DNA from: Escherichia phage Ge15
Strand: one strand, 5' to 3'
Sequence record: PP359696.1
Length of the DNA stretch: 64,000 bases
The notes below the pieces were generated by a model, which was not told the DNA's origin, ran no database searches, and saw only the letters and a list, made by a program, of their open reading frames with translations. Shown here piece after piece: positions 9,887 through 20,163 of the stretch. Each line of letters starts with the position of its first letter. Position 1 is the stretch's first letter. A program made the translations under genes and the position numbers.

Positions 9887-10083
9887 TGAAATTCTTTTTG
9901 GGTCAAACTGTTGAATTAAAGGGAGTTGGTATACCTGGATTAATTTCTAAGGTTCTACCTCCATTTAAATGGAGTGGTATTCAAATAAAAGAGGCTTATA
10001 TTGTTTCCTGGGTAGATGGAAATGAAGACCTTCGTATGGGTGATGAATTATCTCCTATCTATGGATTAAAGGAATTAATATGA
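9886..10083 (+). CDS. Hypothetical protein (30.5 position)
   Basis: 65-aa ORF, ATGA-type coupling. Confidence 0.5.
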   Translation: MKFFLGQTVELKGVGIPGLISKVLPPFKWSGIQIKEAYIVSWVDGNEDLRMGDELSPIYGLKELI

Positions 10084-10286
10084 ATATAATTAATAAGATT
10101 TTTGGAATTCAGTACATTAAGGTTACATATAAAGTAACGTATAAAGGTCCGTATACCGATGAACATGAAGAGCCACAAGTTCAGTCTATTATATTAGAAA
10201 AGGACCCTAACTGGCCAGTTGAATTTCGTCTTCCTTGCTATGGTCATTGGGCTGATGTTGAAATTATAAGTATTGAAAATGTCTGA
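10080..10286 (+). CDS. Hypothetical protein (30.4 position)
   Basis: 68-aa ORF. Confidence 0.5.
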   Translation: MNIINKIFGIQYIKVTYKVTYKGPYTDEHEEPQVQSIILEKDPNWPVEFRLPCYGHWADVEIISIENV

Positions 10287-10737
10287 GTTAGAGATAAGAA
10301 GCAATTTTAGATGGCCATCATGTGCATTAAGTAATTTCGCCCAATGGCCTTTTGTTATGGATGGTATCCAATTTGGAGGTCTCGAAGGATTCCTCCAAGG
10401 ATGCAAGGTGAAAAATGTTGAACAACAGCGTCGTATATTTGGGTTATCCGGGCTTGCCGCCCAACAAGCTGGAAGGTCTTATGCTAGAGCTCAGGACCGT
10501 GGGACCCTCTTCTGGCTTGGAGTTCCGTTTTCAAGATACTCCCCAGCGTGGAAAGAATTATACACAAATGCATATTTTGAAGCAGCGTTCCAAAACAAGG
10601 GCTTTCGCGATGCATTACAAGCCTCGAAAGGAAAAGTTTTGAAGCACAGCATGGCTAGTGGTCTAACAAAAGATGATACAATACTAACCGAAGCTGAATT
10701 TATTGATGTGTTAAACCTATTAAGAGACTCTCTATGA
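10273..10737 (+). CDS. Hypothetical protein (30.3 position)
   Basis: 154-aa ORF; locally GC-richer codon usage. Confidence 0.6.
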   Translation: MKMSELEIRSNFRWPSCALSNFAQWPFVMDGIQFGGLEGFLQGCKVKNVEQQRRIFGLSGLAAQQAGRSYARAQDRGTLFWLGVPFSRYSPAWKELYTNAYFEAAFQNKGFRDALQASKGKVLKHSMASGLTKDDTILTEAEFIDVLNLLRDSL

Positions 10738-11597
10738 AGCCTACTATTTTGACTGATATTGATGGAGTATGTTTAAGCTGGCAATCAGGCCTTCCTTATT
10801 TTGCTCAGAAATATAATCTTCCGTTAGAACATATTTTAAAAATGATCCAAGATGAGAAATTTATTTCTCCGGGTAAACTCTTTAATTGTGATGAAGAACT
10901 TGGTGTCAAGTTAATTGAAAAATATAATCGATCAGATTTTATTCGTTATTTGTCTCCATATAAAGATGCACTGTGTGTAATTAACAAATTAAAAGAAGAT
11001 TATAATTTTGTAGCTGTTACAGCATTGGGTGATTCTATTGACGCTCTGTTGAATCGTCAATTTAATTTGAATGCTCTTTTTCCTGGTGCCTTCTCAGAAG
11101 TAATGATGTGTGGTCATGATTCTTCAAAAGAAGAGTTATTCAAAAAGGCAAAAGAGAAATATAACGTAATTTGTTATATTGACGATCTCGCTCACCATTG
11201 CGATCATGCGAGTGAAATATTAAATGTTCCTGTTTATTGGATGGCGCGAGGAGAGCGTGACAATATTCCAAAAACCGCTCAGCGAGTTTATACATGGAAT
11301 GATGTAGAAAATAAGCTTTTTTCGCCGAAGGAAAATAAAGAAAGTTTTGATAATGAAAAAGCTATAAAAGATGTAATTGAGAAGATGGTTAAAAACGATT
11401 CTTTTCGTTGGAACACTACCTGGAGAACTCCTGGATTTAATCCGTATAATCCATATTATACACATCCATATAATCCATATTATACACACCCGTATCATAT
11501 GAATCCATTCCATACGTGGAGTTATACTAAGCCTGGTGATGCAGGGTATTTTAATAGATTTACTAGTGGTGATAATATTTTCCAAGGAGCATTCTAA
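10734..11597 (+). CDS. HAD-superfamily hydrolase-like protein with C-terminal Pro/Tyr-rich repeats (30.2 position)
   Basis: 287 aa; N-terminal HAD motif I ILTDIDGV; C-terminal NPYNPYYTHPYNPYYTHPY repeats; its last 366 bp lie inside the duplicated segment. Confidence 0.7.
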   Translation: MKPTILTDIDGVCLSWQSGLPYFAQKYNLPLEHILKMIQDEKFISPGKLFNCDEELGVKLIEKYNRSDFIRYLSPYKDALCVINKLKEDYNFVAVTALGDSIDALLNRQFNLNALFPGAFSEVMMCGHDSSKEELFKKAKEKYNVICYIDDLAHHCDHASEILNVPVYWMARGERDNIPKTAQRVYTWNDVENKLFSPKENKESFDNEKAIKDVIEKMVKNDSFRWNTTWRTPGFNPYNPYYTHPYNPYYTHPYHMNPFHTWSYTKPGDAGYFNRFTSGDNIFQGAF

Positions 11598-11644
11598 TGT
11601 TTGTCGTTCACACTATTTATGAAAATGAAGGTAATACTACACGT
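11232..11644. repeat. 413-bp direct repeat, copy 1 (3' part of 30.2 plus first 16 codons of 30.1)
   Basis: Identical by eye to 13617-14029; identity stops on both sides at sharp junctions. Confidence 0.9.
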
Positions 11645-11683
11645 CCGTATAATCCATATTATACACATCCATATAATCCATAA
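11597..11683 (+). pseudogene. Truncated 30.1 start fused to repeat-derived sequence
   Basis: MFVVHTIYENEGNTTR (identical to the start of ORF 13982) followed by PYNPYYTHPYNP and a stop; reading frame broken by the insertion junction at 11644/11645. Confidence 0.7.
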
Positions 11684-12108
11684 TTTAATCCGTATAATCC
11701 ATATTATACACATCCTATAAAAAATTAAAATTAACCACAATAAGCGAATTGATTAAAAATATTTATTGTTCATTATCCGTCAGTAATCATCCCGGGCAAA
11801 TGCCCGGGAATTATTCTAGGATTATTTTCTTTGTTAAAAAAGACAAACGGTATTAACTGATGTATTTACTATTTACCGCTCCCTGCAGGGGGGATTATCA
11901 GAATCCGCGGTTATTCATTATTTATATACATTCAATAAAAAAGTAACCTCATAAAAAATCCTGTACTCACAGGGTGATGCGGGATAACTGACGTAAGGAG
12001 TGCTGCAGGGATTTGATTAGACTGGCCCCCTGAATCTCCAGACAACCAATATCACTTAAATAAGTGATAGTCTTAATACTAGTTTTTAGACTAGTCATTG
12101 GAGAACAG

Positions 12109-12474
12109 ATGATTGATGTCTTAGGGCCGGAGAAACGCAGACGGCGTACCACACAGGAAAAGATCGCAATTGTTCAGCAGAGCTTTGAACCGGGGATGAC
12201 GGTCTCCCTCGTTGCCCGGCAACATGGTGTAGCAGCCAGCCAGTTATTTCTCTGGCGTAAGCAATACCAGGAAGGAAGTCTTACTGCTGTCGCCGCCGGA
12301 GAACAGGTTGTTCCTGCCTCTGAACTTGCTGCCGCCATGAAGCAGATTAAAGAACTCCAGCGCCTGCTCGGCAAGAAAACGATGGAAAATGAACTCCTCA
12401 AAGAAGCCGTTGAATATGGACGGGCAAAAAAGTGGATAGCGCACGCGCCCTTATTGCCCGGGGATGGGGAGTAA
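12109..12474 (+). CDS. insC: IS2 OrfA (InsC) transposase DNA-binding subunit
   Basis: 121 aa [56 protein letters not shown]...; A6G slippery motif near the 3' end. Confidence 0.9.
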
Positions 12475-12480
12475 GCTTAG

Positions 12481-13143
12481 TCAGCCGTTGTCTCCGGGTG
12501 TGCCAAACGTGTTTACCGGATCATGCGCCAGAATGCGCTGTTGCTTGAGCGAAAACCTGCTGTACCGCCATCGAAACGGGCACATACAGGCAGAGTGGCC
12601 GTGAAAGAAAGCAATCAGCGATGGTGCTCTGACGGGTTCGAGTTCTGCTGTGATAACGGAGAGAGACTGCGTGTCACGTTCGCGCTGGACTGCTGTGATC
12701 GTGAGGCACTGCACTGGGCGGTCACTACCGGCGGCTTCAACAGTGAAACAGTACAGGACGTCATGCTGGGAGCGGTGGAACGCCGCTTCGGCAACGATCT
12801 TCCGTCGTCTCCAGTGGAGTGGCTGACGGATAATGGTTCATGCTACCGGGCTAATGAAACACGCCAGTTCGCCCGGATGTTGGGACTTGAACCGAAGAAC
12901 ACGGCGGTGCGGAGTCCGGAGAGTAACGGAATAGCAGAGAGCTTCGTGAAAACGATAAAGCGTGACTACATCAGTATCATGCCCAAACCAGACGGGTTAA
13001 CGGCAGCAAAGAACCTTGCAGAGGCGTTCGAGCATTATAACGAATGGCATCCGCATAGTGCGCTGGGTTATCGCTCGCCACGGGAATATCTGCGGCAGCG
13101 GGCTTGTAATGGGTTAAGTGATAACAGATGTCTGGAAATATAG
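12481..13143 (+). pseudogene. insD: IS2 OrfB (InsD) catalytic region, N-terminally truncated and out of the frameshift frame
   Basis: Open frame contains ...[41 protein letters not shown]...[12 protein letters not shown]; opens only after a TAG at 12478-12480 and is in the same phase as orfA instead of -1. Confidence 0.8.
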
Positions 13144-13616
13144 GGGCAAATCCAATAAACAATTGGAATTTACTTCCATTGATCTGTTTACTCAGTGGTT
13201 GTCACTTTTATCGAGAAAGGTTTGCAGAACGCGGGTTTTTTTATAAGGTTCCTGATGTACTGAGGGATTATTTATCAGCTATACCGCTGGAAATAAATGA
13301 AAAGGCACGATACAAACCCGGCATCGCTAACTATCACAATATCATCACATGTGGTTTTTCAACGTTGTTACCCTATATAAGGCACGGCACCATGACAAAT
13401 ACGGGTATTCGCGCCGATAACAACTTCACCTGCAGTTTCATCAATAATTACCTGGTCTGCAATCTGAATATTTTTCTCTTTAACATTAAGCTTCAGATAG
13501 TTTTTCAGTTCCTGTGACAGAAGGTTGGGAATAAGCGGTTGACGCTTCCACCAGTGCGGAATAGCGGGTGGGTTTGTCGCGCTGAGGTTCGCGTCCAGTA
13601 AAAAAGGCAATAAGTC

Positions 13617-14029
13617 GTTTATTGGATGGCGCGAGGAGAGCGTGACAATATTCCAAAAACCGCTCAGCGAGTTTATACATGGAATGATGTAGAAAATAAG
13701 CTTTTTTCGCCGAAGGAAAATAAAGAAAGTTTTGATAATGAAAAAGCTATAAAAGATGTAATTGAGAAGATGGTTAAAAACGATTCTTTTCGTTGGAACA
13801 CTACCTGGAGAACTCCTGGATTTAATCCGTATAATCCATATTATACACATCCATATAATCCATATTATACACACCCGTATCATATGAATCCATTCCATAC
13901 GTGGAGTTATACTAAGCCTGGTGATGCAGGGTATTTTAATAGATTTACTAGTGGTGATAATATTTTCCAAGGAGCATTCTAATGTTTGTCGTTCACACTA
14001 TTTATGAAAATGAAGGTAATACTACACGT
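13617..14029. repeat. 413-bp direct repeat, copy 2
   Basis: Identical by eye to 11232-11644. Confidence 0.9.
13626..13982 (+). pseudogene. 5'-truncated duplicate of the 30.2 3' region
   Basis: Encodes the same 118 C-terminal residues as ORF 10734-11597 (MARGERDNIPKTAQRVYTW...); lacks the HAD N-terminal domain and its own expression signals. Confidence 0.75.
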
Positions 14030-14251
14030 GATTACGGTCACGTAAATCAATTTTTTAGATGCAATCCAGAATTCCGAGCTCAAAAAGACGAACGAATTTT
14101 TAAAAAATGTGTAGAGCAAGGTTTCATTTACGTCAAGCACTGGATGCAAGGAAATAAAGTTAGAACTACATATCATAAGTCTTTGCCTGAGCTTAATGAT
14201 GAATTGATTTATAATAGAGCTGTAAACCAAACTTTGAAGGATGAGCAATGA
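13982..14251 (+). CDS. Hypothetical protein (30.1 position)
   Basis: 89-aa ORF; start overlaps the stop of the upstream frame (TAATG). Confidence 0.6.
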   Translation: MFVVHTIYENEGNTTRDYGHVNQFFRCNPEFRAQKDERIFKKCVEQGFIYVKHWMQGNKVRTTYHKSLPELNDELIYNRAVNQTLKDEQ

Positions 14252-15711
14252 TTCTTAAAATTCTGAATGAAATAGCATCTATTGGATCAACTAAACAGAA
14301 GCAAGCAATTCTTGAAAAGAATAAAGATAATGAATTGCTTAAACGGGTATATCGTCTGACTTATTCTCGTGGGTTACAGTATTATATCAAGAAATGGCCT
14401 AAACCTGGTATTGCTACCCAGAGTTTTGGAATGCTGACTATTACCGATATGCTTGACTTCATTGAATTCACGTTAGCTACTCGGAAATTGACCGGAAATG
14501 CTGCAATTGAGGAATTGACTGGATATATCACCGATGGTAAAAAGGATGATGTTGAAGTTTTGCGTCGAGTGATGATGCGAGACCTTGAATGCGGTGCTTC
14601 AGTATCTATTGCAAACAAAGTTTGGCCAGGTTTAATTCCTGAACAACCTCAAATGCTGGCAAGTTCTTATGATGAAAAGGGCATTAGTAAGAATATCAAA
14701 TTTCCAGCCTTTGCACAGTTAAAAGCAGATGGAGCCCGGTGTTTTGCTGAAGTTAGAGGCGATGAATTAGATGATGTTCGTCTTTTATCACGAGCTGGTA
14801 ATGAATATCTAGGATTAGATCTTCTTAAGGAAGAATTAATCAAAATGACTGCTGAAGCCCGCCAGATTCATCCAGAAGGTGTGTTAATTGATGGCGAATT
14901 GGTATACCATGAGCAAGTTAAAAAGGAACCAGAAGGCCTAGATTTTCTTTTTGATGCTTATCCTGAAATTAGTAAAGCTAAAGAATTCGCCGAAGTAGCG
15001 GAATCTCGTACTGCTTCTAATGGAATCGCCAATAAATCCTTAAAAGGAACCATTTCCGAAAAAGAAGCCAAATGCATGAAGTTTCAGGTCTGGGATTATG
15101 TCCCGTTGGTAGAAATATACGGTCTTCCGGCGTTTCGTTTAAAATATGATGTACGTTTTTCTAAACTAGAACAAATGACATCAGGATATGATAAAGTAAT
15201 TTTAATTGAAAACCAGGTAGTAAATAACCTAGATGAAGCTAAGGTAATTTATAAAAAATATATTGACCAAGGTCTTGAAGGTATTATTCTCAAAAATACC
15301 GATGGATTGTGGGAAAATGCTCGTTCAAAAAATCTCTATAAATTTAAAGAAGTAATTGATGTTGATTTAAAAATTGTAGGAATTTATCCTCACCGTAAAG
15401 ACCCTACTAAAGCAGGTGGATTTATTCTTGAATCAGAGTGTGGAAAAATTAAAGTAAATGCTGGTTCAGGCTTAAAAGATAAAGCCGGTGTAAAATCACA
15501 TGAACTTGACCGTACTCGCATTATGGAAAACCAAAATTATTATATTGGAAAAATTCTAGAGTGCGAATGCAACGGTTGGCTAAAATCTGATGGCCGCACT
15601 GATTACGTAAAATTATTTCTTCCAATTGCGATTCGTTTACGTGAAGATAAAACTAAAGCTAATACATTCGAGGATGTATTTGGTGATTTTCATGAGGTAA
15701 CTGGTCTATGA
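14248..15711 (+). CDS. 30: ATP-dependent DNA ligase
   Basis: 487 aa; adenylation motif KADGAR (Lys159); near-identical to recalled T4 DNA ligase. Confidence 0.96.
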   Translation: MILKILNEIASIGSTKQKQAILEKNKDNELLKRVYRLTYSRGLQYYIKKWPKPGIATQSFGMLTITDMLDFIEFTLATRKLTGNAAIEELTGYITDGKKDDVEVLRRVMMRDLECGASVSIANKVWPGLIPEQPQMLASSYDEKGISKNIKFPAFAQLKADGARCFAEVRGDELDDVRLLSRAGNEYLGLDLLKEELIKMTAEARQIHPEGVLIDGELVYHEQVKKEPEGLDFLFDAYPEISKAKEFAEVAESRTASNGIANKSLKGTISEKEAKCMKFQVWDYVPLVEIYGLPAFRLKYDVRFSKLEQMTSGYDKVILIENQVVNNLDEAKVIYKKYIDQGLEGIILKNTDGLWENARSKNLYKFKEVIDVDLKIVGIYPHRKDPTKAGGFILESECGKIKVNAGSGLKDKAGVKSHELDRTRIMENQNYYIGKILECECNGWLKSDGRTDYVKLFLPIAIRLREDKTKANTFEDVFGDFHEVTGL

Positions 15712-15945: not shown

Positions 15946-18042
15946 ATGATGGAACTCATTACAGAATTATTTGACGAAGATACTACTCTTCCGATTACAA
16001 ACTTAAATCCAAAGAAGAAAATACCACAAATTTTTTCAGTTCATGTTGATGACGCAATTGAACAACCAGGCTTTCGTTTATGTACCTATACATCTGGAGG
16101 TGATACTAATCGCGATTTAAAGATGGGCGATAAAATGATGCATATTGTTCCTTTTACATTAACTGCTAAAGGTTCAATTGCTAAATTAAAAGGTCTCGGT
16201 CCAAGCCCAATTAATTACATCAATTCAGTTTTTACTGTTGCGATGCAGACGATGCGTCAGTATAAAATTGATGCCTGTATGCTTCGTATTCTTAAGTCTA
16301 AAACTGCTGGTCAAGCTCGTCAAATTCAACTTATTGCTGATAGACTTATCCGCAGTCGTTCAGGTGGCAGATACGTCCTTCTTAAGGAACTCTGGGATTA
16401 CGATAAAAAGTATGCATATATTCTTATACATCGCAAAAATGTATCACTAGAAGACATTCCAGGAGTTCCAGAAATTAGCACCGAGCTCTTTACTAAAGTT
16501 GAATCAAAGGTTGGTGATGTTTATATCAATAAAGATACTGGAGCTCAAGTAACTAAAAATGAGGCAATTGCTGCATCTATTGCGCAAGAAAACGATAAAC
16601 GTTCTGACCAAGCTGTAATCGTTAAAGTTAAAATTTCCCGTAGAGCAATTGCACAAAGTCAATCATTAGAATCTTCTAGATTTGAAAGTGAATTATTCCA
16701 AAAGTATGAATCTACCGCAGCTAATTTCAATAAACCTGCTACGGCTCCTTTAATTCCCGAAGCAGAAGAAATGAAGCTTGGAATTAATTCATTAGCTTCT
16801 AAAACTAAAGCAGCAAAAATTATTGCTGAAGGAACTGCAGATGAACTTCATTATGACTATAAATTCTTTTCAAAAAGTGAGGTTAATGAAGTTTCTGAAA
16901 AAATTAAAGATGTAATTCTTAATGCGATTAAAAATGAACCAACTACTTCAATAAAATGTTTAGAGAAATACGCAGCAGCTGTTAATCAATTATTTGAAGA
17001 ATATAAAGATAATTGGCTTGATAAACATAATAAAACCCGTAAAGGACAGCCAGATGAAGTCTGGGAAGAAATGACTAAAAATTCCTGGAACGCAGCAAAA
17101 ACTAAATTCCTCAAAAGAATGATTTACAGCTTTTCTGGAATTGGTGCAGGTCCAATGATTGATATTACTATTGCCCGTGATGGTTCTAAATATACTCCAT
17201 CACAAAAGCGTGGCATTAGAGAGTATTGCGGTTCAGGATATACTGACATCAATAATCTTCTTTTAGGACGCTACAATCCAGAACGATATGATGTAATGAG
17301 TGAAAAAGAAATTGAATCTGCTATAAATAACTTAGATTCAGCTTTTGAAAATGGTGACCGTATACCAGAAGGCATTACAGTTTATCGTGCTCAAAGCATG
17401 ACTGCTCCTATATACGAAGCACTAGTTAAAAATAAAGTGTTCTATTTCAGAAATTTTGTATCTACTTCTTTAACTCCTATCATTTTTGGACGTTTTGGAA
17501 TTACGCATACTGGTATTGGTCTTTTAGAACCAGAAGCTCGTAATGAATTGACAGTTGATAAAAATGAAGAAGGAATAACTATTAATCCAAGCGAAATAAG
17601 AGCGTATAAAGAAAATCCTGAATACGTTAAAGTTCAAATAGGATGGGCAATTGATGGAGCTCATAAAGTTAATGTTGTATATCCAGGAAGTCTCGGAATA
17701 GCAACAGAAGCTGAAGTTATTCTACCACGAGGATTGATGGTCAAAGTTAATAAAATAACTGATGCTTCTAATAATGACGGAACAACATCTAATAATACAA
17801 AACTCATTCAAGCTGAAGTTATGACTACGGAAGAACTCACCGAATCAGTCATTTATGACGGTGACCGTCTAATGGAAACTGGTGAAGTAGTTGCAATGAC
17901 AGGTGATATTGAAATAGAAGACAGAGTTGACTTTGCATCATTTGTTTCATCAAATGTTAAACAAAAAGTAGAATCATCTCTTGGAATTATTGCGTCTTGC
18001 ATAGATATTACAAACATGCCTTACAAGTTCGTTCAAGGATAA
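15946..18042 (+). CDS. alt: Alt-type mono-ADP-ribosyltransferase, packaged in the head (paralog 1)
   Basis: 698 aa; N-terminal MELITE|LF capsid-targeting/gp21-cleavage-type sequence; C-terminal R (VYRAQ), STS (FVSTSL) and ExE (EAEVILPRG) motifs. Confidence 0.85.
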   Translation: MMELITELFDEDTTLPITNLNPKKKIPQIFSVHVDDAIEQPGFRLCTYTSGGDTNRDLKMGDKMMHIVPFTLTAKGSIAKLKGLGPSPINYINSVFTVAMQTMRQYKIDACMLRILKSKTAGQARQIQLIADRLIRSRSGGRYVLLKELWDYDKKYAYILIHRKNVSLEDIPGVPEISTELFTKVESKVGDVYINKDTGAQVTKNEAIAASIAQENDKRSDQAVIVKVKISRRAIAQSQSLESSRFESELFQKYESTAANFNKPATAPLIPEAEEMKLGINSLASKTKAAKIIAEGTADELHYDYKFFSKSEVNEVSEKIKDVILNAIKNEPTTSIKCLEKYAAAVNQLFEEYKDNWLDKHNKTRKGQPDEVWEEMTKNSWNAAKTKFLKRMIYSFSGIGAGPMIDITIARDGSKYTPSQKRGIREYCGSGYTDINNLLLGRYNPERYDVMSEKEIESAINNLDSAFENGDRIPEGITVYRAQSMTAPIYEALVKNKVFYFRNFVSTSLTPIIFGRFGITHTGIGLLEPEARNELTVDKNEEGITINPSEIRAYKENPEYVKVQIGWAIDGAHKVNVVYPGSLGIATEAEVILPRGLMVKVNKITDASNNDGTTSNNTKLIQAEVMTTEELTESVIYDGDRLMETGEVVAMTGDIEIEDRVDFASFVSSNVKQKVESSLGIIASCIDITNMPYKFVQG

Positions 18043-18045
18043 ATC

Positions 18046-20103
18046 ATGGAACTTATTACAGAATTATTTGACGGCGCTTCGGCGCCGGTTGTTAACTTAA
18101 ATCCTAAGCATAAAATACCTCAAATTTTTGCTATTCAAACCGGTGAAGAAAGCGTGCTTCCTGGATTTAGATTTTGTACATACACCTCTGGCGGTGATAC
18201 AAATAAAAACGTTAAGCCAGGCGATAAAATGATGCATATCGTAATGATAGGTGTTAATGAGAAACTATCATTAGTTAAACTTAAAAACTTGGGTGGAAAT
18301 CCAATTGGTGTCATTAATGCGGTTTTTGATACTGCTCTTCAAACAATGAAACAGTATAAAATTGACGCATGCCTATTCCGCGTACTAAAAAGTAAAACAA
18401 ATGGTGCAGCTCGTCAAATGCAAGTTATTGCTGACCGTTTAGTACGTACTAAAGGAGCAGGTCGATATGTTCTTTTAAAGGAAATCTGGGATTACGATAA
18501 AAAGTATGCATATATTATGGTTTACCGTAAAAATGCCAATTTAGAAGACATTCCAGGTGTACCTCCTATTTCAACTGAGTTATTCACAAAAGTTGAATCA
18601 AAGGTTGGTGATGTTTATGTAGATGTTAAAACAGGTAATGCTGTTCCTAAAGCTGTTGCTGTTGCTGCTTCTATTGCTTTAGAAAATGATAAGCGCACGG
18701 ATCAAGCTGTTATTCAGAAAACTAAAATTAGTCGTCGATTGGCAGCACAAGCTCAATATTCTACTGTCGATGCTTCGCTTCAGGGTGATAGCTTCGCTGC
18801 CAAGAAATATCAAGAGTTTGAATCTAAAGTTCCGGTATATAAAGCAGAAGGACCAATGAACTCTGGTGTTATTCAGATTGGTTCAAACTTCAGCAAAGGA
18901 GCTATCGGTGGTATGAGAAGTGCTTCTCGTTTTAAATCTAACGATTATGAACTAGAAAGCTTCCGAAATCATATTGCATTGGCTCATGCACGTTTACGTG
19001 ATCCGTCTATCAGACTGCAGAGCGATATAACACATCAAGGTTCTCAAGAATATTTAAAGAATAAAGAATTTTTTGATTATAAAACCGATAAAATTTTGAG
19101 CGATCTCGCTGACATTAATATTTCTAATAGCTTTGATGTTATTAAGAAAATTATCAATGATTTAGTTAAAGGTTCTAAAGCCACGCCAGACGAAAAGGTA
19201 GCTATTATTCAATTTGTTATGAATGGCATTTATAAATTGATTAATGAATCTGCTGCTCAGGCATATGAATACGCAAGCACCGAAGTAACTCCAAAAGGAT
19301 TAACTCAGGCTGAGTCTGATGTAATAGAAGATTATTGTGCAGATTCATATGTTGAAATGAACTCGTTCCTCTTGGGTAAACCAGATTCTACCCGTGAAGA
19401 ATACATGGAACGAGCTATTAAACACATCGAGACAATGGATTCTGCATTCGCTAAAGGTTCAGTTCTTCCTCCAGGAACTACGCTTTATCGTGGACAAGAA
19501 GTTACTTTTAAAACTTTACGTCATAATATTGAAAATAAAATGTTCTATTTCAAGAACTTCGTATCCACATCGCTTAAACCAAATATCTTCGGTGAGCATG
19601 GTAAAAACTATATGGCTCTAGATGATTCCGGCGCAGTATTTTCTGGCGAAGGAGAAGGTTCAGTTGATGCTGAAGATTTAATGCATATGGGTAGTCACTC
19701 TGCTTATGCGAATGAAGACGCTGAAACTAGCGTAGGTATGGTAATTAAAGGGGCTGAGCGAATCAAAGTTATCGTTCCAGGTCATTTATCAGGATTTCCA
19801 TCAGAAGCTGAAGTTATTTTACCGCGTGGAATTTTGCTGAAGATTAATAAAGTGAGCACGTACATGATGAAAGAAACTGCTTATAATAAGTATCTAATCG
19901 AAGGCACAATCGTTCCTCCTTCTGAACAATTAGAAGAATCGGTATATGATGGCGATCATCTAATGGAAACTGGTGAAGTTCGTCCAATGGCTGGGTTTAA
20001 TCAATTCCTTGTAGAAGAATCAAAAGAAGAGGAAAACGAAGTTTCTCAAATCTTGGCTTCTTTGGTTAACATCAACGGAATGTCTAAAAAGTTCAAGATG
20101 TAG
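18046..20103 (+). CDS. Alt-like mono-ADP-ribosyltransferase (paralog 2)
   Basis: 685 aa; same N-terminal MELITELFD and conserved first ~230 aa; divergent middle; retains R (LYRGQ), STS, ExE (EAEVILPRG). Confidence 0.8.
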   Translation: MELITELFDGASAPVVNLNPKHKIPQIFAIQTGEESVLPGFRFCTYTSGGDTNKNVKPGDKMMHIVMIGVNEKLSLVKLKNLGGNPIGVINAVFDTALQTMKQYKIDACLFRVLKSKTNGAARQMQVIADRLVRTKGAGRYVLLKEIWDYDKKYAYIMVYRKNANLEDIPGVPPISTELFTKVESKVGDVYVDVKTGNAVPKAVAVAASIALENDKRTDQAVIQKTKISRRLAAQAQYSTVDASLQGDSFAAKKYQEFESKVPVYKAEGPMNSGVIQIGSNFSKGAIGGMRSASRFKSNDYELESFRNHIALAHARLRDPSIRLQSDITHQGSQEYLKNKEFFDYKTDKILSDLADINISNSFDVIKKIINDLVKGSKATPDEKVAIIQFVMNGIYKLINESAAQAYEYASTEVTPKGLTQAESDVIEDYCADSYVEMNSFLLGKPDSTREEYMERAIKHIETMDSAFAKGSVLPPGTTLYRGQEVTFKTLRHNIENKMFYFKNFVSTSLKPNIFGEHGKNYMALDDSGAVFSGEGEGSVDAEDLMHMGSHSAYANEDAETSVGMVIKGAERIKVIVPGHLSGFPSEAEVILPRGILLKINKVSTYMMKETAYNKYLIEGTIVPPSEQLEESVYDGDHLMETGEVRPMAGFNQFLVEESKEEENEVSQILASLVNINGMSKKFKM

Positions 20104-20155
20104 TTTACAAGTCCCTCGTGTTGTGTTACAATAGTTTTACTGACATAACATGAGG
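20103..20155 (+). promoter_or_regulatory. Second copy of the GTTTAC + SD-sequestering hairpin cassette
   Basis: Near-identical to 1700-1752 (GTTTACAAGTCCCTCGTGTTGTGTTACA...CTGACATAACATGAGG); precedes ORF 20164. Confidence 0.55.
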
Positions 20156-20163
20156 AACACAAA

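Follow-up and report, generated by a model that had tools for sequence, protein, structure and literature searches.

An internally deleted IS2 copy in the record of Escherichia phage Ge15 lies in a patchwork of E. coli K-12 DNA that is probably an in-silico chimera

The record of Escherichia phage Ge15 (PP359696.1) holds, within the 64,000-nucleotide stretch analysed here (the window), an insert of 1,972 bp (11645-13616) that is a patchwork of E. coli K-12 sequences centred on an incomplete copy of IS2. The host pieces were drawn from the surroundings of several chromosomal IS2 elements and keep the orientation that they have there; they abut at plain joints, and neither the insert nor the joints that we searched for occur elsewhere in the collections covered. 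From these observations we infer that the insert is probably an in-silico chimera of host reads within the phage contig, and that the apparent deletion in IS2 would be a gap that was never sequenced. The features on which the argument rests are the following, in the order in which they occur.

11232-11644, plus strand: first copy of the phage direct repeat (413 bp), exactly equal to 13617-14029
11645-11715, plus strand: two stray fragments (lengths about 39 and 33 nt) that duplicate parts of the phage's NPY-repeat region, natively at 11435-11480
11716-11780, plus strand: K-12 ygiL-yqiG intergenic DNA, 65 bp, from -68 to -4 left of IS2H, 100% identical (L001 233-297)
11781-12017, plus strand: K-12 DNA downstream of intB, 237 bp, from -246 to -10 left of IS2I
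12018-13154, plus strand: IS2 with a 194-bp internal deletion and both terminal inverted repeats intact, 100% identity in two blocks
12109-12474, plus strand: orfA (InsC, 121 aa), intact, Pfam HTH_Tnp_1
12501-12502, no strand: deletion joint, nt 484 to nt 678 of IS2, with one T ambiguous
12523-13143, plus strand: orphan InsD' ORF, 206 aa, with an rve/rve_3 DDE domain (Pfam: rve 8.5e-19, rve_3 9.5e-19)
13155-13384, plus strand: K-12 orgA/ygeK pseudogene region, 230 bp, from +1 to +230 right of IS2F
13385-13616, plus strand: K-12 yaiX/yaiP DNA, about 232 bp, from +47/48 to +279 right of IS2A
13617-14029, plus strand: second copy of the phage direct repeat (413 bp), exact, leading into intact 30.1 (13982-14251) and ligase (14248-15711) homologues

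The window was assigned to a T4-like phage (Tequatrovirus), and the closest records are 97-98.8% identical to it. The insert is located between the homologues of 30.2 (10734-11597) and 30.1 (13982-14251), just upstream of the gene for DNA ligase (14248-15711), and it is bracketed by an exact duplication of 413 bp of phage sequence. The two copies (11232-11644 and 13617-14029) are 100% identical and constitute the sole long exact repeat in the 64-kb window, and the relatives carry the segment in a single copy. Copy 1 spans the 3' part of the 30.2 homologue and reaches 48 nt into the 30.1 homologue, and because of the duplication no phage gene is interrupted by the insert. The assembly is otherwise clean, with 37 of the 37 conserved genes present at full length and without frameshifts, and with zero Ns. 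No further foreign islands were found in the window, and inspection of GC content revealed no other host DNA.

Several repeated sequences in the window deserve description in their own right. The 30.2 homologue ends in tandem 24-bp repeats that encode NPY(N/Y)THPY (11432-11508, with a copy at 13817-13893), and in relatives this protein is 278-287 aa long, apparently varying in length via the repeat. Within the repeat sits the motif TTATACACATC, which occurs 4 times in the window when 0.05 occurrences would be expected by chance, and which resembles part of the Nextera mosaic-end sequence. Adapter trimming at TTATACACATC was considered and rejected, since the side of the motif at which the piece ends is the wrong one. 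Beyond the ligase gene there are tandem paralogous genes for Alt-like ADP-ribosyltransferases (15946-18042 and 18046-20103), an arrangement that the relatives share; the two proteins are about 40% identical and the 5' parts of the genes are 71% identical in DNA. A direct repeat of 54 bp, 96% identical, is present at 1700-1753 and 20103-20156, 18.4 kb apart, the one copy directly following the RNA ligase A homologue and the other the second alt paralogue. Possibly the two copies serve as a common terminator or regulatory element.

The IS2 copy itself was aligned to a K-12 reference of 1331 bp, annotated as 'IS3-like element IS2 family transposase, programmed frameshift'. The alignment gives a length of 1137 bp against 1331 bp for full-length K-12 IS2, which bears out the figures in the original prediction (1137 bp between recognisable inverted repeats, compared with a canonical length of about 1331 bp). 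Positions 12018-12501 of the window equal nt 1-484 of IS2 and positions 12501-13154 equal nt 678-1331, both blocks being 100% identical to four K-12 IS2 copies; the pattern cannot be due to chance, given that a known element is matched exactly. Exactly 194 bp (2 mod 3), approximately nt 485-678, are missing. A loss of roughly this size and phase from the N-terminal part of orfB had been predicted, and the joint, at 12501/12502, falls inside the interval (12475-12530) that had been singled out for it. The arms of the terminal inverted repeat (12027-12059 and 13114-13146) are 33 nt long and 79% complementary, and the ends of the element are identical to those of the reference. With identity at the level of an isoform (95% or more), imperfect terminal inverted repeats and a DDE domain, the copy possesses three of the properties by which IS2 is recognised, and it lacks two others, a length of about 1331 bp with an OrfAB frameshift fusion and a 5-bp target-site duplication. 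At the ends of this copy no such duplication is seen, the left flank reading ...GATTTGAT (...TTGAT) and the right ATAAAC....

The logic of the reading frames is likewise just what had been predicted, and the factual statements of the original prediction are all borne out. Both orfA, encoding 121 aa (12109-12474), and the A6G slippery heptamer inside it (12426-12432) are intact. After a slip into the -1 frame, 38 more codons can be read before a stop at 12546-12548, where about 37 had been counted, and the best possible frameshift product would contain 146 aa, compared with 409 aa for the reference OrfAB. Through the deletion OrfAB residues 132-196 are lost and the HTH_21 domain (residues 172-212) is cut into. 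The InsD' ORF is in the phase of orfA and is open only from 12481, behind a TAA (12472-12474) and a TAG (12478-12480), the latter being the TAG just after which the original prediction had placed the catalytic region. The DDE (rve) region is therefore present yet unlinked to the DNA-binding N-terminus. The copy cannot make OrfAB, so that it would be non-autonomous, and at most OrfA (InsC), the DNA-binding N-terminal protein, would be expressed. With both ends retained, it could in principle be mobilised at best in trans by a host IS2 transposase.

The sequences that adjoin the element had been taken for phage DNA. They are in fact from K-12, the left flank from the neighbourhood of IS2I, downstream of intB, and the right flank from that of IS2F, in orgA. 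Simple transposition is excluded because the target duplication is missing and the flanks are from E. coli, and the earlier argument against a simple in-situ transposition is upheld. In K-12 each host piece lies no more than 280 bp from an IS2 copy, and four different copies are involved (IS2H, IS2I, IS2F and IS2A). The pieces keep their native side and native orientation with respect to IS2 but are stacked, so that H is followed by I on the left and F by A on the right. At three of the four, a few base pairs that adjoin the IS in K-12 have been left out: the ygiL-yqiG piece (11716-11780) is without the 3 bp next to IS2H, the intB-downstream piece (11781-12017) is without the 9 bp (GGTCCCTTG) next to IS2I, and the yaiX/yaiP piece (13385-13616) is without the 46 bp (46-47) next to IS2A. 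The IS2F-flank piece (13155-13384), in contrast, is contiguous with the IS end, as it is in K-12. Three of the flank pieces measure 237, 230 and about 232-233 bp, which is like the length of a sequencing read.

Further details of the patchwork are pertinent. The insert opens with the two stray phage fragments, which match positions 2442-2480 and 2436-2474 of a comparison sequence (L004). Its sole mismatch in 1,972 bp is at 13262, a G where all K-12 genomes have an A. Counting the deletion joint in IS2, there are eight new joints (among them 11644/5, 11715/6, 11780/1, 12017/8, 12501/2, 13384/5 and 13616/7), and at each the microhomology is 0-1 bp, so that the pieces simply abut. A chimera should consist of host DNA that is peculiar to one record, has no overlaps at its joints and follows an order set by linkage to a repeat, and the foreign segments, which are of K-12 type, agree with this in each respect.

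The insert is absent from all other phage records searched, and at about 25 related loci, in GenBank, ENA and Logan assemblies, 30.2, 30.1 and the ligase gene are uninterrupted. One of the Logan contigs, SRR25221740_1198 (L016, 1707 bp), matches window positions 9945-11644 at 100% and continues straight into 14030-14036; it also matches 13617-14036. This contig represents the empty site in essentially the same phage sequence. The run from which it was assembled, SRR25221740, may contain the same phage, the other relatives being just 97-98.8% identical. Exact look-ups of the chimeric ORFs (129 aa and 118 aa) and of the Alt homologue returned no recorded protein; the 206-aa InsD', the 30.1 protein and the ligase occur too widely to be informative.

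The original prediction had raised the question of whether the deleted variant exists in hosts, and the answer from the collections searched is that it does not. No match to the deletion joint exists in 5,426 complete E. coli genomes, in which IS2 has about 25,000 matching places, or in 72,556 PLSDB plasmids; the query in both cases was a 50-mer (12477-12526) with 25 nt on each side, with which only a contiguous joint can seed a match. Exact 28-mers across the joint are likewise absent from IMG/VR, from JGI metagenomes and from GTDB genomes. The joint of the IS2I flank to IS2 nt 1 (J4) is absent from the E. coli genomes and the GTDB genomes; IS2 is present at the intB locus in 360 genomes, all 360 of which keep the 9 bp, and the best match to J4 is this native locus. 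An exact search for J8, which joins yaiP to the phage, found nothing in metagenomes or IMG/VR. For J1-J3, J7 and J8, no full-length match was found in E. coli genomes in a search with concatenated 50-mers that reported only the best place per K-12 record; apart from the native IS2A locus, which was matched with a gap, this search returned trivial matches no longer than 33 nt, and its IS2F positive control was hidden. Independent data of the kind that would mark a genuine insertion, namely the junctions in relatives or elsewhere, did not emerge. The internal deletion that had been predicted is thus correct insofar as 194 bp are absent from this copy, and probably incorrect insofar as it implied a biological deletion in a circulating variant. 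A search of the literature on IS2 in T4-like phages, on join-copy recombination and on misassembly from host contamination produced nothing directly relevant.

The searches also brought up a second phage record with IS2 sequence. PP488543.1 (L038, Escherichia phage BP9, a 138-kb lytic Vequintavirus) contains, at 124982-125362 (L038 2501-2881), the initial 381 bp of IS2 with an identity of 95.8%. The annotation there reads 'IS2 insertion element repressor InsA', and there is an overlap with the 3' end of rIIB. The fragment may be a second IS2 fragment, real or chimeric, in the record of a virulent phage.

How could an assembly come to contain such a patchwork? We suppose that the phage lysate contained a small amount of E. 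coli K-12 host DNA. Reads from multicopy IS2, together with reads or mates within paired-read reach (up to 280 bp) of several IS2 copies, would have given rise to short contigs, which a link to IS2 would have brought into a chain, end to end and with no gap characters between them. This chain would then have been placed between the two ends of the circular phage contig, whose overlap of 413 bp would account for the exact duplication. IS2 nt 485-677 would be an uncovered gap, just like the 3, 9 and 46 bp that are missing at other joints. The ordering may have been produced by paired-read scaffolding, or by re-assembly of IS2-recruited reads with the gaps dropped.

What decides for the in-silico chimera is that every host fragment comes from close beside an IS2 copy, with side and orientation as in K-12, and yet the fragments are stacked and stop short of the IS by 3, 9 and 46 bp. 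Given 7 IS2 places in MG1655 and a genome of 4.6 Mb, we estimated the chance of such a placement as about 4e-5 per random fragment end. It follows that the process behind the insert relied on linkage to IS2, in the manner of scaffolding or read recruitment. The same conclusion is favoured by the restriction of host DNA in the window to IS2-linked sequence, by the blunt joints, by the read-length-like flank pieces, and by the stray copies of 33-39 nt from a tandem repeat at a boundary that resembles a contig end. It is also favoured by the absence of the joints and of the insert elsewhere and by the contig L016, which reads straight across the site. The lone base difference at 13262 is as expected for coverage close to a single read, and provides an indirect hint.

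Other observations weigh against the chimera. The rest of the assembly is clean, with its 37 of 37 full-length genes and no Ns. Mainstream assemblers either join contigs by overlap or leave Ns, and blunt abutment requires a scaffolder that drops gaps or a manual step; we can name no specific program that yields exactly this pattern. If contamination by the host were the whole cause, further multicopy host sequences (IS1, IS5, rrn) might accompany IS2, and none was seen. All the phage genes are intact, as they would be in a viable real recombinant, and the left boundary of IS2 (12018) is exact to the base, like an end made by transposase.

These last points lead to the chief alternative, which is that the insert is real. 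It is possible, although we consider it a good deal less probable than an assembly error, that the phage captured the DNA while growing on K-12, by one complex replicative event with serial template switching or by a few such events. The route would pass from the end of the 413-bp segment twice back to the NPY repeats, then to sequences beside several IS2 copies and to IS2, skipping 194 bp, and finally back into phage DNA 412 bp upstream, and this return would have created the duplication. Events of the join-copy or break-induced replication type are common in the recombination-dependent replication of T4. The duplication-insertion spares 30.2, 30.1 and the ligase gene, so that a viable phage would result, and the net gain, 2,385 bp, falls within the slack provided by the terminal redundancy of T4. 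On the phage side the switch points cluster within some 410 bp of one another, which resembles template switching on a local scale. Apart from the insert the assembly is clean and free of Ns, the host DNA is of the type of K-12, a usual propagation host, and the left end of IS2 is exact. Set against these arguments are the eight joints with 0-1 bp of microhomology, since template switching normally uses 2 bp or more, and the choice of templates, since we know of no reason why they should lie beside four scattered IS2 copies with side and orientation correct. Homologous exchange via IS2 would leave contiguous flanks, rather than flanks that are stacked and 3, 9 or 46 bp short. The 100%-identical empty site in L016, and the fact that the insert and the tested joints occur nowhere else among the sequences searched, also speak against a real insert. 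A single in-vivo event, in which a T4-like fork switched repeatedly among several chromosomal IS2 ends, for example ends gathered in a transposase synaptic complex, and so acquired IS2 with its stacked flanks while duplicating 413 bp of phage DNA, appears unlikely.

The DNA might, alternatively, have been joined in the laboratory, by ligation during library preparation of host fragments that survived DNase, or by jumping PCR, or as a spurious product of a gap-closing PCR that was sequenced and pasted in. The blunt joints are what ligation would yield and the fragments are short (33-884 bp), but random ligation cannot explain why every host fragment is next to an IS2 copy with side and orientation both correct, PCR jumping needs a homology that is lacking at the joints, and the sequences at the phage boundaries are unlike mispriming sites for the adjoining phage sequence. 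We regard a wet-lab origin as very improbable. Even less credence can be given to the model implicit in the original prediction, an IS2 variant that was naturally deleted in a host and moved into the phage by mobilisation in trans or by recombination with a host copy. Both inverted repeats are intact, so that mobilisation in trans is conceivable, and K-12 has IS2 copies able to supply OrfAB, at 7 places in MG1655. This model, however, is contradicted by the lack of a target-site duplication, by the presence of E. coli rather than phage DNA on both sides, by the derivation of the two flanks from different chromosomal loci, and by the absence of the joint from 5,426 E. coli genomes, 72,556 plasmids, GTDB, IMG/VR and metagenomes; it is effectively refuted. 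Three simpler ideas were also discarded. Integration of a plasmid by a single crossover fails because the insert is without a replicon or vector, fragment ends defined by restriction sites because the breakpoints are without a common site, and a generally poor assembly because the 37 of 37 conserved genes are full length.

As a whole, these results suggest that the sequence most likely belongs among the cases of host contamination or chimerism in phage records, and should not be classed as a new variant of an IS. Should it be an artefact, about 2.4 kb of the record is spurious, made up of the 1,972-bp insert of E. coli K-12 DNA, with its transposase gene, and a false duplication of 413 bp. Such sequence could mislead screens for mobile elements or host genes in lytic phages of the therapeutic type, and could inflate counts of 'IS elements in virulent phages'. 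When a broken IS is met in a phage genome, its flanks should be checked for host origin before any biological reading is attempted. If the insert is real, it is a rare documented case of the capture of host DNA with an IS by a T4-like phage, and has an unusual multi-template structure; a single fork-switching event, if true, would be a previously undescribed route for host DNA into a strictly lytic phage that contains hydroxymethylcytosine. Either way, the deleted IS2 is inert cargo, with no plausible function in the phage and no evident role for it.

It is instructive to compare the insert with systems that are better known. The element resembles IS2 of E. coli K-12, a member of the IS3 family, over all of its 1137 bp, at 100% identity, and shares with it both inverted repeats, orfA, the slippery heptamer and the rve coding region; it is unlike K-12 IS2 in that its catalytic region is out of the -1 frame, the 5-bp duplication is lacking and the flanks come from two IS2 loci. 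In retaining its ends while the transposase is inactivated by an internal deletion, it recalls the non-autonomous deleted derivatives of IS elements (MITE-like or defective), but these are normally families of copies, whereas the present joint is a singleton in every collection searched. The serial short templated segments, the local duplication and the phage breakpoints within about 410 bp are reminiscent of FoSTeS/MMBIR or of the join-copy recombination of T4. Microhomology of 2-5 bp, which is usual in such events, is missing from the joints, and the templates are dispersed and linked only by their adjacency to IS2. Finally, the insert is like the host-DNA contamination, and the insertion sequences of hosts or cloning strains, that are encountered in deposited records of viral and other genomes, being K-12-type DNA centred on a multicopy IS, unique, and absent from close relatives. 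It differs from the classic form of such contamination, a clean IS insertion into a clone with a target duplication, in its stacked flanks, blunt joints and 413-bp duplication, and these point to scaffolding rather than transposition.
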